A DNA stretch of 64,000 bases from an uncultured Candidatus Actinomarina sp. (GTDB taxonomy: Bacteria > Actinomycetota > Acidimicrobiia > Actinomarinales > Actinomarinaceae): the NCBI GenBank assembly GCA_902595195.1, contig CACJPC010000001.1, positions 150,654 through 214,653 of the forward strand, written 5' to 3'. The position numbers and the translations under genes are program-made. Shown in pieces: positions 4,110 through 38,799 of this stretch (its first letter is position 1; each line of letters opens with the position of its first letter). The notes beneath the pieces are model-generated. The model saw nothing but the letters and a program-made list of their open reading frames with translations. It had not been told where the DNA came from and did not search any database.

Positions 4110-4211
4110 TTGAAATAAAACTCCTGAAAAATACTGTGGGCCTAGTTAGATTTGAACTAACGACCTCATCCTTATCGGGGATGCGCTCTAACCAGGCTGA
4201 GCTATAGGCCC
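4110..4211. repeat. Direct repeat copy 1 (tRNA-Ile gene plus 27 nt of its 3' flank), partner at 8668..8769
   Basis: Manual alignment at a constant offset of 4558 bp gives about 102 nt with 3 mismatches (4133, 4135, 4177). The extra word GTGACTTTT(T) recurs at 4092, 4263, 8651 and 8662. Confidence 0.85.
4137..4211 (-). tRNA. tRNA-Ile (anticodon GAU), variant copy with C33 instead of the near-universal U33
   Basis: Cloverleaf read by eye: GGGCCTA TA GCTC AGCCTGGTTA GAGC G CATCC CCGATAA GGATG AGGTC GTTAG TTCAAAT CTAAC TAGGCCC A. The anticodon loop is CCGATAA, versus CTGATAA in the 8695..8769 copy. Confidence 0.8.
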
Positions 4212-8584: not shown

Positions 8585-8637
8585 TGGGCCCTACAGGATT
8601 TGAACCTGTGACTTCTTCCTTGTAAGGGAAGCGCTCT
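8585..8637 (-). pseudogene. Truncated tRNA-Val (anticodon UAC) remnant: 3' ~53 nt only
   Basis: The reverse complement reads AGAGC G CTTCC CTTACAA GGAAG AAGTC ACAGG TTCAAAT CCTGT AGGGCCC A. That covers the D-stem 3' strand through the discriminator. The sequence where the 5' acceptor and D arm should be (8638 onward) does not fit. Confidence 0.75.
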
Positions 8638-8667
8638 TGAAATAAAATGGTGACTTTTTGGTGACTT

Positions 8668-8769
8668 TTGAAATAAAACTCCTGAAAAATGCAGTGGGCC
8701 TAGTTAGATTTGAACTAACGACCTCATCCTTATCAGGGATGCGCTCTAACCAGGCTGAGCTATAGGCCC
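8668..8769. repeat. Direct repeat copy 2 (tRNA-Ile gene plus 3' flank), partner at 4110..4211
   Basis: See copy 1. Immediately adjacent, 8638-8678 contains the scar-like word arrangement TGAAATAAAA-TGGTGACTTTTT-GGTGACTTTT-GAAATAAAA. Confidence 0.85.
8695..8769 (-). tRNA. tRNA-Ile (anticodon GAU), canonical copy
   Basis: Same cloverleaf as 4137..4211 but with the canonical anticodon loop CTGATAA (U33). No encoded CCA. Confidence 0.9.
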
Positions 8770-34365: not shown

Positions 34366-36264
34366 TTAAATAAGCAAGTTCTTTTGAAATAAAAAAGCTT
34401 CATCATCCCACTTTCTACCTAGGAAGCTTTCCACCATATTTTCTGCAGGAATAGTACCTCCAGGCTTGAGAATCTTATTTTTGTAATCAACACCTACTGA
34501 ATTTGAAAGCACTCCTTCATTTTCAAATCTGCTAAACAAGTCATCACCAATAATTTCTGCCCATAAGTATCCATAGTAAGCAGCATCATATCCACCAAGT
34601 AAATGACCAAATGCTGCCAAATGATTTGTATCTTTGGGATAGGCGATATTAGTTACTACCTGAGAAGCTTGTTCGATTTGTAAAAGGTCATCATTGAAAT
34701 TCTCACCATGCATATGTTGATCAGCAAGCCCAAAAGATACTTGCCTTAATGCCAACAAACTAACTCCAATGTTTTTTGATTCGTTTAACTTTTTACATAG
34801 TTGTTCAGACAATGGTTCTGAAGTTTCAATATGTTTTGAAATCCTTTTTAAGCACTCTACTTTCCAAACCCAGTGCTCCATAATCTGACTAGGAGCTTCC
34901 ACAAAATCCCACTCACAATTTGCACCCACAAACCTTGTATATTTTGATTTACCAATTCCATTATGCAAGACATGACCAAATTCATGAAACAAGGTTTCAA
35001 CTTCATCAAAAGTCATAAGTCCATCTCCTGTATTAGGATTTGGAAAATTTGCGACCATTGAACATATTGGTAACTCTTGCCTATCGGAACCACCGGAAGA
35101 AATATCAAATACTGCTGCATGGGTAAACTTTCCTTCTCTTGGATAGAGGTCTAAATAAAAGTAAGCTAGTTGTTCACCATTTTTTTCCCACAAAGACCAA
35201 AGTTCAACATCTTCATGCCACGCAGTTTCATTTGATTCTGACTTAATTTCTAAATCAAAAACTTCTTCACAAACTTTGAACATTTCATTTTTTACATCAT
35301 GAATAAAAAAATATTTTTTTAATTCACTATTTTCTATATTGCTAGTTTTGCTTCTTTTTGATGAAATAAAGTATCGAATATCCCATGGTGAGATATCAGT
35401 AATTTCAATATCATCTATTACAAGGTCTTTTTTTTCTTTCTCAGCAGCTTTTTGTAACTTAGGAATTAAATCTTTATACATAGCATCAACATTTTTTGGA
35501 TTTTTTGCCATTCTGTTTTGCAATCTATATTCAGCCCATGTTTCAAATCCAAACAATTTAGATTTTTCATTTCTTAGCAAAACAGCTTCTTTAAGGATTG
35601 GAATATTATCTTCTACAGCCCGATTATTAAAAGCTTTCCAAACTATTTCTCTTGTGTTCCTGACATTACAGTTCTCAGATATTGCATTTACATCTGGATA
35701 TGCCATTGTAATAATAAATTTTTCTTCATCTTTTTTTAAGTTGTTAAGTTCATTTTTGCTTAAACCGCTTAATTCAACTTCTGAAAATCTAAGCTCTGTT
35801 TTATCTTTTGCTATATTTTCTGAAAAAGCGATACCAAGCTCTATAAGCCTTTTATCAATTTCTATTAACCTATTTCTGCTTTCATCTGACAAACCATGAC
35901 CAGCATTTTTAAAATCTATGCCTAAATCTTTGTGAAACTCAATACTCTCTTTATCTGCATCTGAAATATCAATTTCATTATATTTTTTGTAAAGATCATC
36001 ATCATTAAATATTTCAAGTGCAAAATTTTGTATTTTAGAATCTGCTTCATTTCCAAAATCTCTAATCTTTTCTTCAGGGTGTACATCTCCAAGAAAAGCA
36101 ATCCTTCCTGAAACGTCATAAACTGTACTTTCTAAATCATTAAAATCATTTAAATTAACGCTTGTTGATGACTTTATGTTTTCAACTAATTTTTTACATT
36201 CTTCTAAAGTGTTATCCAAATCATTATTCAAGCTCTCTAGGTTTGCCTCAGAATAGTTAAACAT
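34366..36264 (-). CDS. M3 family zinc metallopeptidase (oligopeptidase / Dcp-like)
   Basis: HEFGHVLH zinc motif with a downstream E (EAPSQIMEHW). 632 aa. Confidence 0.85.
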   Translation of the reverse strand: MFNYSEANLESLNNDLDNTLEECKKLVENIKSSTSVNLNDFNDLESTVYDVSGRIAFLGDVHPEEKIRDFGNEADSKIQNFALEIFNDDDLYKKYNEIDISDADKESIEFHKDLGIDFKNAGHGLSDESRNRLIEIDKRLIELGIAFSENIAKDKTELRFSEVELSGLSKNELNNLKKDEEKFIITMAYPDVNAISENCNVRNTREIVWKAFNNRAVEDNIPILKEAVLLRNEKSKLFGFETWAEYRLQNRMAKNPKNVDAMYKDLIPKLQKAAEKEKKDLVIDDIEITDISPWDIRYFISSKRSKTSNIENSELKKYFFIHDVKNEMFKVCEEVFDLEIKSESNETAWHEDVELWSLWEKNGEQLAYFYLDLYPREGKFTHAAVFDISSGGSDRQELPICSMVANFPNPNTGDGLMTFDEVETLFHEFGHVLHNGIGKSKYTRFVGANCEWDFVEAPSQIMEHWVWKVECLKRISKHIETSEPLSEQLCKKLNESKNIGVSLLALRQVSFGLADQHMHGENFNDDLLQIEQASQVVTNIAYPKDTNHLAAFGHLLGGYDAAYYGYLWAEIIGDDLFSRFENEGVLSNSVGVDYKNKILKPGGTIPAENMVESFLGRKWDDEAFLFQKNLLI

Positions 36265-36300
36265 AAACCTCCTTAATCTAAGTTATGATACTATTAAATT

Positions 36301-36537
36301 ATGGAAATAAAATTAGAGTTTTGTGTAGTCTGAAACTACACCCCTCGTGCAGTTAGTACGATAGAAGACATCTTAGAAATTTACGGAAACAAAGTAACTT
36401 CGATTAATTTAATTCCAAGTGGTGGAGGAGTATTTGAGTTCTACCTAGATGACAATTTATTATTTTCAAAAAAAGAACTAGGTAGACACACTGAGGACGG
36501 TGAGATTCTTAAGCTCATAGAAGAAGCGCTTGATTGA
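36301..36537 (+). CDS. Rdx family (SelW/SelT/SelH-like) protein with in-frame TGA at the C-x-x-U position: candidate selenoprotein
   Basis: Not in the ORF track. It translates to MEIKLEFCVV[TGA 36331-36333]NYTPRAVSTIEDILEIYGNKVTSINLIPSGGGVFEFYLDDNLLFSKKELGRHTEDGEILKLIEEALD, stop TGA 36535-36537. The layout matches the Rdx family pattern I-x-Y-C-x-x-C/U...R-A...L-x-P-x-GG-x-FEV...SKK..G. Confidence 0.65.
36345..36361 (+). promoter_or_regulatory. Candidate bacterial SECIS hairpin
   Basis: UCGUGC-AGUUA-GUACGA: a 6-bp stem (one G-U) whose apical loop contains GU about 21 nt 3' of the UGA. Competing folds exist at 36323-36341 (UGA in the loop) and 36334-36354. Confidence 0.35.
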
Positions 36538-37268
36538 GTCTACCTTTTGACCTAACCCTTTTTGAATTAATCTTTATTGCTCTATTAATCTTTATAGGAT
36601 CATCAGTTCAAGGAATACTGGGATTTGGATTTGCTGTTATAGCATCACCTATAGTTGTACAAATTGAAGCACTGTTAGTTCCTCAACTCTTATCACTATT
36701 GGGTTTACCATTAGCAATTCGAGTATTTATAAGAGAAAGAAATAAAGTCGATTTAAGTTCAGTAAAACCTTTAGTTGCTGGCAGGTTTGTTGGGGGACCA
36801 ATCGGTTTGTTGTTTTTATCAATATTAAATGAAAAATATCTTTCTATTTCTGTAGGTTTAATAGTTTTTTTAGCTGGAATAGCTTCTTTTTTTGGATGGG
36901 TAATTAAAAGAAACAAAACCAATTCTTTCATTGCAGGTACATTTTCTGGAATTTTTGGAATGATTGCCGCAATAGGAGGCCCTCCAATTGCTCTTCTGTA
37001 TCGAGATGCTGATCCAGACGAATTTAGACCATCATTAAATAGTGTTTTTATAATTGGAATAATAATCACTTTATCTTTGCTTGCCTTTACTGGAAGAATC
37101 TACATTGATCACATTTATTTATTTTTGATCAATATTCCATTTGTTTTTTTAGGAATTAGATTATCAAGCTTAATTTTTTCTAAAGTTTCTCAGAGTTTTC
37201 TGTCTGCGTCAGTGACTTATTTTTCTATTTTTTCTGGTTTATATGTGATATTAAGAAATATAAATTAG
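36534..37268 (+). CDS. TauE/SafE (DUF81) family anion exporter
   Basis: IGSSVQGILGFGFAVIASPIV N-terminal motif, an internal repeat with GGPPIALL, and about 8 TM helices. The TTG start overlaps the stop of the Rdx gene. Confidence 0.75.
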   Translation: MSLPFDLTLFELIFIALLIFIGSSVQGILGFGFAVIASPIVVQIEALLVPQLLSLLGLPLAIRVFIRERNKVDLSSVKPLVAGRFVGGPIGLLFLSILNEKYLSISVGLIVFLAGIASFFGWVIKRNKTNSFIAGTFSGIFGMIAAIGGPPIALLYRDADPDEFRPSLNSVFIIGIIITLSLLAFTGRIYIDHIYLFLINIPFVFLGIRLSSLIFSKVSQSFLSASVTYFSIFSGLYVILRNIN

Positions 37269-37305: not shown

Positions 37306-38799
37306 ATGTTAATACGAGCATCCTTAGGAGGGGTACTATATTTTTTAAGCTTTCCTCCTTTTGACTTCTGGTTCTTAATTTTTCCAGCACTGTATTTTTT
37401 TTACTACTCATTGTTATCAGATGAAAAATCTTTTTTTACAGGGTTTATATTTGGGAGTGTCACCTATGGTGTAATTTTATTAGGAATTCAATCAATAGGA
37501 CTTGAAGCATGGATTCCATTAACAATTTTAATGGGATTGATGTATGGAATATTCGCAAAACTGTTTTCTTATCTAAATACAAAATCTGATAACAATTTCT
37601 ATGTATTGTTGTCAGTTGTAGCGATTTATGATTTGATTAGAGCATATTTTCCATTTGGCGGTTTTCCTTGGGGTTTTCCCTCAACGGTTTTATTAACTGG
37701 TCCTATAGACAGTTGGTTCATGCTAGATGCTCGTTTATCTTTTGAAGGCTTTGGACCAACGGGATCTTCTCTTTTACTACAATCCTTTTCTTTAATAATT
37801 GCACTTGGTGTCTTTTCAAAAAACAAACAAAAAAATTATTTTAAAAATTATATGATATTTTCATTAGTAGTTTTTTCAATATACGTTTTCAGTCTTGTAA
37901 TTATTAATACTGATTACGATGATGCTCAATTAGGAGCATCAGAACTAAACATCGCAATCATTCAAGGAAACAGTCCATGTCCTGGTGCCAAAAATAGATG
38001 TAGTAATGAAAGACAAAAAATATACGATAGCCATTTAACTCAAACACAATCTCTTGACGGAAATTTTGACCTTGTAGTTTGGCCCGAGAGCTCAACAGGA
38101 TTTAACAATGATCCTGGAATACATAGTAGAGTTCAAAACGATATTGCTACCGAAGCTTTGAGGCTAGATTCATATTTTTTAATAGGAGGAGACAGACCTA
38201 TACAAAATCAATATTTTGAAAATTATGGAGTCTTTATAAACAAAGATGGTGAGATTATAGATCAATATTTAAAACAGCACCCGGTGCCTTTTGGAGAGTA
38301 TATTCCATTTAGAAAATATTTAGACTGGATTCCTCCGTTAGCACTAGTTCCACGTGACATGATCAGGGGTGATGGTCAAAAAATATTTATGGTAAACAAT
38401 ACGAAAATTTCAACTGTTATCTCATTTGAAGGATCGTTCCAAAGATATATCAGGAATAGTGTTCAGGATGGTGCAGAATTAGTTGTAATACTTACTAACC
38501 AAGCAAGTTACGGAGAAAGCGGTATGTCAGATCAATTTATATTAATGTCTAGGGCAAACGCAATTTCAAACGGTAGGCCGATTGTACATGCAGCTATAAC
38601 TGGTAAATCAGCATTTATAGATCATAACGGAAAAGTGATTGCTAAAACTAAATTATTTGAAACAGGAGTACTTACTGAAAAACTTGAGTCAAAACAGAAA
38701 GAAACACCTTACAGCAGATATGGAAATTATTTAAATTATATTTTTATATTATTTGGGGTCATTGTTTTTAGTAAAAAATTTATTCGTCCAACTGATTAA
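37306..38799 (+). CDS. lnt: apolipoprotein N-acyltransferase
   Basis: N-terminal polytopic membrane domain followed by a CN-hydrolase domain (VVWPESS, ISFEG, and K in LKQHPVPFGEYIP). Confidence 0.85.
   Translation: MLIRASLGGVLYFLSFPPFDFWFLIFPALYFFYYSLLSDEKSFFTGFIFGSVTYGVILLGIQSIGLEAWIPLTILMGLMYGIFAKLFSYLNTKSDNNFYVLLSVVAIYDLIRAYFPFGGFPWGFPSTVLLTGPIDSWFMLDARLSFEGFGPTGSSLLLQSFSLIIALGVFSKNKQKNYFKNYMIFSLVVFSIYVFSLVIINTDYDDAQLGASELNIAIIQGNSPCPGAKNRCSNERQKIYDSHLTQTQSLDGNFDLVVWPESSTGFNNDPGIHSRVQNDIATEALRLDSYFLIGGDRPIQNQYFENYGVFINKDGEIIDQYLKQHPVPFGEYIPFRKYLDWIPPLALVPRDMIRGDGQKIFMVNNTKISTVISFEGSFQRYIRNSVQDGAELVVILTNQASYGESGMSDQFILMSRANAISNGRPIVHAAITGKSAFIDHNGKVIAKTKLFETGVLTEKLESKQKETPYSRYGNYLNYIFILFGVIVFSKKFIRPTD

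Follow-up and report, generated by a model that had tools for sequence, protein, structure and literature searches.

Does an in-frame TGA near the start of an unannotated reading frame in Candidatus Actinomarina specify selenocysteine (Sec), and which protein would that frame encode? The question is raised by a stretch of 64,000 nucleotides (nt) from an uncultured member of this genus (contig CACJPC010000001.1, positions 150,654 to 214,653), referred to below as the window, in which a TGA-interrupted frame of the Rdx/SelW-like type lies between the genes for an M3 peptidase and a TauE/SafE permease. We conclude that the gene is predicted to encode a Sec-containing Rdx protein, and we assign a probability of roughly 90% to this reading. 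The evidence that carries it comes from the protein family, from the conservation of the TGA codon among orthologues, and from selection acting on a hairpin that follows the codon in the RNA.

The reading frame runs on the forward strand from ATG 36301 to a TGA stop at 36535-36537 (coding sequence 36301-36537) and contains an in-frame TGA at 36331-36333, which is codon 11. Conceptual translation from ATG 36301 gives MEIKLEFCVV-TGA-NYTPRAVSTIEDILEIYGNKVTSINLIPSGGGVFEFYLDDNLLFSKKELGRHTEDGEILKLIEEALD-TGA, a product of 78 codons when U11 is counted, and the Cys at codon 8 (36322-36324) together with the TGA codon forms the motif C8-V-V-U11 (TGT GTA GTC TGA; 36322-36333). There is no open reading frame (ORF) in 36301-36537 under translation table 11, and the gene calls of the source record are empty between the M3 peptidase and TauE genes, which agrees with the absence of the gene from the ORF track on which the original prediction was based. 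The frame, the C-x-x-U motif and the hairpins described in that prediction are all present at their positions, and those of its suggested checks that were run, the majority, turned out in its favour. The M3 peptidase gene is divergent and starts at 36264, with 36 nt separating both starts. In NCBI, the window matches contig CACJOR010000001.1 of assembly GCA_902595165.1. Its GC content is about 33%, and among the other TGA-interrupted ORFs in it that have CxxU or UxxC, none is credible.

Profile scoring was done with U written as C. The product matches the Pfam family PF10262 (Rdx) at 59.9 bits (cutoff 22.6), with a match that spans positions 2-73 of the 74 in the profile, so the family assignment that had been proposed for this gene stands well over the threshold. 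When the 10 residues before the TGA are removed, the score falls to 41.9 bits; the upstream segment thus adds 18 bits and belongs to the Rdx domain. The NCBIfam model TIGR02174 (CXXU_selWTH) is also passed, at 48.8 bits against a cutoff of 34.2. The equivalog model NF041051 (SelTWH_Campy) gives 78 bits, below its cutoff of 88, and judged by this score the product is related to that group and not a member of it.

Sequence search of the Protein Data Bank (PDB) returned the bacterial SelW-related structures 2fa8, 3dex, 2ojl, 2p0g, 2obk, and 2oka, and the CxxU of the product aligns exactly on the CxxC of these homologues (CTQC in both Atu0228, 2fa8, and SAV_2001, 3dex). The internal TGA therefore falls on the second Cys of CxxC homologues, as the original prediction had placed it. 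An AlphaFold model was built for P0001, a public protein 96% identical to that of the window, with a predicted local distance difference test (pLDDT) value of 83.8 and a predicted template modelling (pTM) score of 0.72. It consists of a strand at residues 2-8, the CxxU loop, a helix at residues 13-31, three strands, and a helix, which is the thioredoxin-like beta-alpha-beta-beta-beta-alpha fold; the loop that joins strand 1 to helix 1 holds the redox motif. In Foldseek, the 21 top-ranking PDB entries for this model are all bacterial SelW-related proteins (2fa8, 3dex, 2obk, 2ojl, 2oka, and 2p0g), with template modelling (TM) scores of 0.78-0.83 and a root-mean-square deviation (rmsd) of about 1.4 A, and MIEN1, thioredoxins, and mouse SelW are more distant.

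The product is thus most likely a small thiol/selenol oxidoreductase with a putative C-x-x-U selenylsulfide centre at the strand 1/helix 1 junction. The solved bacterial Rdx proteins of the Cys form (Atu0228, 2fa8; SAV_2001, 3dex; VcR75, 2p0g; 2obk; 2ojl; 2oka) share its fold at a TM score of about 0.8 and an rmsd of about 1.4 A. However, they have Cys in place of Sec, comprise about 100 residues with additional terminal segments, and are only 19%-27% identical to the Actinomarina protein. We know of no function for these solved proteins, and to our knowledge no bacterial Rdx member has a demonstrated substrate. Mouse SelW (2npb) and MIEN1 (2ljk) have the Rdx superfamily fold and the CxxU/CxxC position in common with the Actinomarina protein, but the structural match is far weaker (TM about 0.65, E about 1e-2 to 1e-3). 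Partners shared with mammalian SelW are unsupported.

An orthologue scan with one genome per species yielded 80 loci, about 57 from Actinomarinales and 23 from Gemmatimonadota or Chloroflexota, the latter at 46%-55% identity. With the window counted, 81/81 sequences carry TGA for the U of CxxU. The flanks on both sides of the TGA are conserved as protein, C8 is invariant across the gene sequences analysed, and none of the orthologues begins downstream of the TGA except for obvious truncated gene calls. Among 50 distinct Actinomarinales genes, the upstream codons 3, 5, 6, 7, 8, and 10 vary synonymously with their amino acids fixed. It follows that translation in the Rdx frame covers the segment ahead of the TGA, which is under purifying selection at the protein level. 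The original prediction had named conservation of its first 10 codons as a check, and MEIKLEFCVV-type coding is indeed kept throughout.

These data bear directly on the possibility that the TGA is a genuine stop, in which case the locus would either be a pseudogene in decay or encode a leader peptide of 10 residues and, from a start of its own, an Rdx fragment truncated at the N-terminus. Such a stop would be in keeping with the behaviour of standard gene callers, which skip the ORF or call fragments that begin after the TGA (P0104, P0106, P0113, and P0114), and with a window in which no Sec machinery was seen. However, conservation of the TGA together with both of its flanks extends over three phyla, and the 10 upstream codons change synonymously and contribute 18 bits to the Rdx score. 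A fragment beginning after the TGA would lack both the first strand of the fold and its redox motif, and there is no ATG codon between the internal TGA and the Rdx stop. The comparative data effectively refute a genuine stop, and we give it next to no credence. Some of the post-TGA fragments are labelled "selenoprotein W-related protein" by the Joint Genome Institute (JGI).

Reassignment of the genetic code was also considered and rejected, because TGA terminates 8 of the 52 long ORFs in the window and so serves there as a normal stop, as had been stated at the outset. About 100 public protein clusters (P0001-P0098; equivalent to window positions 36301-36555) are 74%-96% identical to the product and look full length. 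They read ...FCVVWNYTPRAV... and ...EEALDWVYLLT, with Trp both at the internal TGA and at the true stop, and end in a spurious tail of 6-13 residues, such as WVYLLT. These clusters are table-4 gene calls on low-GC contigs, and TGA is thus present in their DNA. Public entries for the gene are accordingly either mistranslations of this kind or truncated, and in the source record it is uncalled, a systematic gap in annotation that the present reading corrects.

Further evidence on the decoding of the UGA comes from the RNA. Hairpin B (36345-36361, forward strand) is a 17-nt, SECIS-like element, SECIS being the Sec insertion sequence; its 6-bp stem (36345-36350 paired with 36356-36361) starts 11 nt after the UGA and closes an AGUUA loop that places G-U at its apex. 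Among 27 distinct Actinomarinales contexts, the stem is paired in 100% of the cells. The closing pair is U-A in 15 contexts and C-G in 12, with none broken; a second varying pair is G.U in 21 and G-C in 6; and the loop reads A-G-U-U-A/G. The hairpin covers codons 16-20 (CGT GCA GTT AGT ACG), and CGT, GCA, GTT, and ACG are found in 50/50 distinct genes, with Ser codon 19 being AGT in 38 and AGC in 2 of these. The same amino acids elsewhere in the gene freely use three or four codons. The synonymous entropy of the five hairpin codons lies below that of all 25 other codons that are at least three-fold degenerate (Mann-Whitney p = 2.8e-4). Covariation and invariant synonymous sites thus reveal selection at the RNA level on the very hairpin that the original prediction had called SECIS-like. 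Its free energy is -5.8 to -7.7 kcal/mol across variants. GC-rich homologues possess a 17-nt hairpin of their own, with a G-U-containing loop; it begins 15 nt past the UGA, and pairing at each of its positions is 90% or higher.

A bacterial SECIS is described as a small stem-loop just after the UGA with a G in the apical loop, and hairpin B fits this description (PMC1088965). The minimal Escherichia coli SECIS is a 17-nt upper stem-loop (PMC11431864). The element of E. coli fdhF, like hairpin B, measures 17 nt, lies in the coding sequence just past the UGA, and carries G-U in a small apical loop; in contrast, hairpin B has a different sequence, no bulged U, and a weaker stem. The 11-nt spacing of hairpin B equals that of the minimal E. 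coli element. The eukaryotic SECIS, unlike the Actinomarina hairpin, is located in the 3' untranslated region. Hairpin B is therefore a putative SelB-binding element. Recruitment of SelB by a stem-loop downstream of the UGA is the standard bacterial mechanism, and in the mechanism we propose, hairpin B would bring in SelB and its Sec-tRNA(Sec) while the UGA occupies the A site, and the ribosome would read codon 11 as Sec.

The Actinomarina gene differs from E. coli fdhF in having a second conserved hairpin around the UGA itself. Hairpin A (36323-36341, forward strand) has 7 bp (36323-36329 paired with 36335-36341), holds the UGA in a CUGAA loop, and has a free energy of -6.6 kcal/mol. In the same 27 contexts it is 95.8% paired, with three pairs occasionally broken. 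One pair shows a compensatory swap, being G-C in 20 contexts, A-U in 6, and broken in 1, with a V9I replacement matched by a synonymous change of Tyr13. Hairpin A is not clearly kept outside Actinomarinales (Gemmatimonadota). It has no counterpart in canonical SECIS elements, and its stem would be open whenever the A site holds the UGA. The original prediction had described two competing hairpins with nucleotides in common; we reject this, as A and B have no common nucleotides and the minimum free energy (MFE) fold of 36320-36400 contains both, side by side.

Decoding of the UGA as Sec presupposes a Sec machinery. A preprint reports selC, selA, selD, and a divergent selB in 84/84 complete Actinomarina genomes, with about 5 predicted selenoproteins per genome in 113 assemblies (84 complete and 29 further) and a similar number in 23 NCBI genomes (10.64898/2026.04.03.716425). 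The remark in the original prediction that Sec is uncommon in Actinobacteria is too strong, since this phylum has been listed among the three richest in selenoprotein families (PMC1794560). In addition, Sec machinery near the Rdx gene was found in a single case, the Chloroflexota metagenome-assembled genome (MAG) L072 (JAAZNW010000099.1; L072:10001-12924), where a Sec-encoding selD (SNCAG-TGA-ASKLS) lies 1.7 kb from the Rdx homologue; the order is Rdx homologue, trpS- and dtd-like ORFs (judged from their N-termini), and then selD.

The hairpins and the machinery also bear on a further explanation, namely that the UGA is read through without Sec, by near-cognate tRNA-Trp or tRNA-Cys, or with the hairpins acting as a generic read-through signal. 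It is true that many database entries show W at the UGA, that the Sec machinery of the genus is taken from a preprint with none found in the window, and that a UGA held in the loop of hairpin A is non-canonical for a SECIS. However, the W calls also place W at the real stop (..EEALD-W-VYLLT) and are table-4 artefacts on low-GC contigs. The UGA falls exactly on the second redox Cys of CxxC homologues, which is the classic Sec/Cys position, and Trp at codon 11 would destroy the active site. The reported presence of selA, selB, selC, and selD in the genus (10.64898/2026.04.03.716425) and a hairpin geometry that fits the minimal bacterial SECIS likewise favour Sec. We regard read-through without Sec as very unlikely, if somewhat less so than a genuine stop, and Sec at codon 11 is the reading that we retain.

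The identity of the gene can be related to earlier surveys. The most abundant predicted selenoprotein family of Actinomarina in the preprint is an uncharacterized "78 aa" family with no database match (10.64898/2026.04.03.716425). This family, obtained with deep-Sep, comes from the same genus, equals the Rdx product in length (78 residues with U counted), escapes standard gene callers, and is the most widespread candidate, in 59 + 35 of 113 genomes (10.64898/2026.04.03.716425). It is very likely the Rdx gene described here, as its length and abundance suggest.

Several observations weigh against the Sec reading. Hairpin B is short and weak (-5.8 kcal/mol in the window), and the swap at its covarying pair may have arisen just once or twice in evolution. 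In single-sequence folding against shuffles, z was -0.9 and 32/200 shuffles folded equally well; it is the comparative evidence, and not single-sequence folding, that places the hairpins beyond chance. A permissive Rfam scan of 36250-36450, up to E = 10, returned no SECIS family and only noise. This result says little, because the Rfam SECIS models RF00031 and RF01988-RF01990 are argued to represent in-frame bacterial SECIS poorly (10.64898/2026.04.03.716425). Neither the 64-kb window nor the 10 kb to each side of the Rdx gene in any of 57 Actinomarinales loci yielded a tRNA-Sec, selA, selB, or selD; the search consisted of ARAGORN and Rfam on the window and 58 loci, and tblastn of E. coli SelA, SelB, and SelD on the window and L001-L086. 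The Sec machinery of the genus is reported in a single, non-peer-reviewed preprint (10.64898/2026.04.03.716425), whose text and supplement contain no sequences, such that the equation of its "78 aa" family with the Rdx gene draws on length and abundance. Finally, an attempt to recover an Actinomarina SelD, in which the pattern TTDFFxPxVD[DN]P was back-translated with an AT bias and scanned against contigs from metagenomes, yielded only other lineages.

The SelD candidates from this search were rejected one after another as Actinomarina proteins. The low-GC Sec-SelD loci L154 and L138 show only about 39% protein identity to window genes, the SelD of L105 is nearest to SAR202/Chloroflexota, and the 346-aa SelD family P0127/P0163 belongs to a lineage of 29% GC in which aspartokinase shares only 45% identity with its Actinomarinales counterpart. 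None of the candidate SelDs has the "MRLT" prefix mentioned in the preprint. As an observation in its own right, the lineage of about 29% GC (L209-L218, for example TARA_SAMEA2620259 scaffold_6, and P0127/P0163) carries a Sec-containing SelD of 346 aa, MDKEIRLTNFSTCGG-U-AGKAS, and is very abundant in the sea; the protein collection has entries for this SelD in 172 blocks.

SelW-like proteins are the most abundant marine selenoprotein family and have been on record since 2005 (PMC1088965, PMC2398784). The SelW-like proteins of the Sargasso Sea and Global Ocean Sampling (GOS) surveys (PF10262, earlier PF05169; TIGR02174) share with the Actinomarina protein its fold, size, CxxU at strand 1/helix 1, and marine surface origin. 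They also have a bacterial-type stem-loop right after the UGA, and Sec forms far outnumber Cys forms (PMC1088965, PMC2398784). SelW-like selenoproteins rarely have Cys counterparts in Sec-using organisms, and TGA in 81/81 sequences fits this scarcity (PMC1794560). The survey sequences were without an assigned organism, whereas the present gene is placed in Actinomarinales, in a fixed Rdx-TauE-Lnt order (Lnt, apolipoprotein N-acyltransferase).

The gene is therefore convincing but ordinary, as the Rdx family and Sec use in Actinomarina have both been described; because the SelW-like family is long known and Actinomarina Sec use is claimed in the preprint, the finding is a correct rediscovery, and the understanding of Sec decoding itself is unchanged by it. 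What it adds is a family name, Rdx/SelW-like, for what is very likely the top "uncharacterized" selenoprotein of the preprint, a defined SECIS-type hairpin with covariation and synonymous-site constraint, a likely taxonomic source for part of the marine SelW-like signal, and an invariant overlap with a TSUP permease gene that suggests a functional or regulatory link. Actinomarina is among the most abundant surface-ocean bacteria.

The Rdx gene is followed on the same strand by the TauE/SafE (TSUP family) permease gene (36534-37268), an ORF of 244 residues that matches PF01925 at 73.4 bits against 32.6 (profile positions 2-236 of 237), and by the Lnt gene (37306-38799; Pfam LNT_N and CN_hydrolase), the third on this strand. 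The TTG start of TauE at 36534 overlaps the Rdx stop by 4 nt (TTGA, 36534-36537). This junction, which had been noticed in the window, is present in 58/58 Actinomarinales sequences and is thus invariant across the order. TauE starts at +233 in 56 of 57 Actinomarinales loci, the alignment of the remaining one (L055) being partial, and Lnt is located at about +1005 in 56 of 57, wherever the contig reaches that far. The order Rdx-TauE-Lnt is kept in every Actinomarinales locus that is long enough, with TauE identity down to 57% and a changing upstream neighbour.

No TauE gene was found within 10 kb on either side of the Gemmatimonadota and Chloroflexota Rdx homologues. Their neighbours are pfkA-like, Nif3-like, and trpS-dtd-like, as named from N-termini and not from a database scan, and no neighbour common to the Rdx homologues across phyla was found. 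Since the Rdx neighbours in these two phyla are unrelated, the link to TauE is lineage-specific.

Upstream of the gene, the hexamer TACTAT (36289-36294, forward strand) is a candidate -10-like TAnnnT promoter element, 6 nt before the ATG. TAnnnT occurs at -12 to -7 in all 24 distinct upstream variants from the 58 Actinomarinales sequences, and the upstream spacer contains no Shine-Dalgarno sequence before the Rdx ATG. This combination in all variants suggests a leaderless transcript, and the Rdx mRNA is probably leaderless. A generic sigma-70 scan showed no enrichment over shuffles, which makes the promoter the weak part of this description. Leaderless transcripts are common in Actinobacteria.

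Translation of TauE is probably coupled to completion of Rdx, as the overlapping junction would have permease synthesis follow synthesis of the selenoprotein; no Shine-Dalgarno sequence is evident for the TauE TTG start. It could equally be that the overlap is plain gene packing in a streamlined genome, with the two products independent and the link to TauE meaningless. Start/stop overlaps of the ATGA/TTGA type are common in the window, several of the 8 TGA stops lie in such junctions, and the homologues of the other two phyla are without a nearby TauE. On the other hand, none of the 58 Actinomarinales sequences departs from the gene order or from the exact TTGA, despite TauE identity as low as 57% and a changing upstream neighbour. 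We consider the chances of independence to be about even, the Rdx gene being a true selenoprotein gene in this case as well.

A more far-reaching and, in our judgement, doubtful possibility is that Rdx and TauE/TSUP form one coupled module in which permease synthesis is gated by Sec decoding. The weak TTG, having no Shine-Dalgarno sequence of its own, would be reached mainly by ribosomes that finish the Rdx ORF, and these would require Sec insertion at codon 11, 30 nt from the probable leaderless 5' end. Scarcity of Sec-tRNA would then lead to termination at the UGA and turn the permease off. If true, the module would act as an inherent switch by which selenium supply controls an oxyanion transporter (for substrates resembling sulfite or selenite), and Rdx would be the redox partner of that transporter. 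As a corollary of this reading, a large share of the most abundant marine selenoprotein family, recorded in ocean metagenomes since 2005 with no taxonomic source, may come from Actinomarinales.

The overlap may also bear on a third selenoprotein grouping of the preprint, which "matches K07090"; predictions were mapped there by same-strand overlap (10.64898/2026.04.03.716425). This grouping may be partly the Rdx gene, mis-mapped via the 4-nt TauE overlap, or a genuine Sec-containing TSUP paralogue. K07090 is presumably a TauE-type KEGG orthology (KO) entry; one paper lists it only as "uncharacterized protein".

Some minor observations concern individual database entries and the wider window. 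The metagenomic sequences P0047 and P0110 (equivalent to about 36286-36345) skip the TGA in the +1 frame (..NKIRVLCSLKLHPRAV..), owing to the loss of 1 nt from the CCCC run that follows the UGA, with an additional 1-nt insertion in the upstream A run of P0047. They are probably homopolymer errors in long-read assemblies, and may otherwise be a real Sec-free variant. In the +1 frame relative to Rdx, the window contains an overlapping 23-codon ORF, MILLNYGNKIRVLCSLKLHPSCS, which starts at ATG 36286, covers 36286-36357, and spans the UGA; its use is unsupported. An Actinomarina-type Rdx gene is carried by L061 (NYXO01000052.1, "Methanobacteriota archaeon"), L062 (NZKG01000031.1, "Marinoscillum sp."), and P0104 ("Flavobacteriaceae bacterium TMED206"), and the TauE and Lnt genes also follow Rdx in L061 and L062; these contigs look like binning contaminants in those MAGs.

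Elsewhere in the window, a 4.5-kb segment with a reduced GC content (0.298 versus 0.333 for the window) lies between two tRNA-Ile(GAT) genes that are identical except at one base, and a truncated tRNA-like sequence adjoins the second copy (4136-4211, 8591-8646, and 8694-8769). The segment may be an integration scar or a small island, and tRNA-bounded variable regions have been described for Actinomarina (10.64898/2026.04.03.716425).

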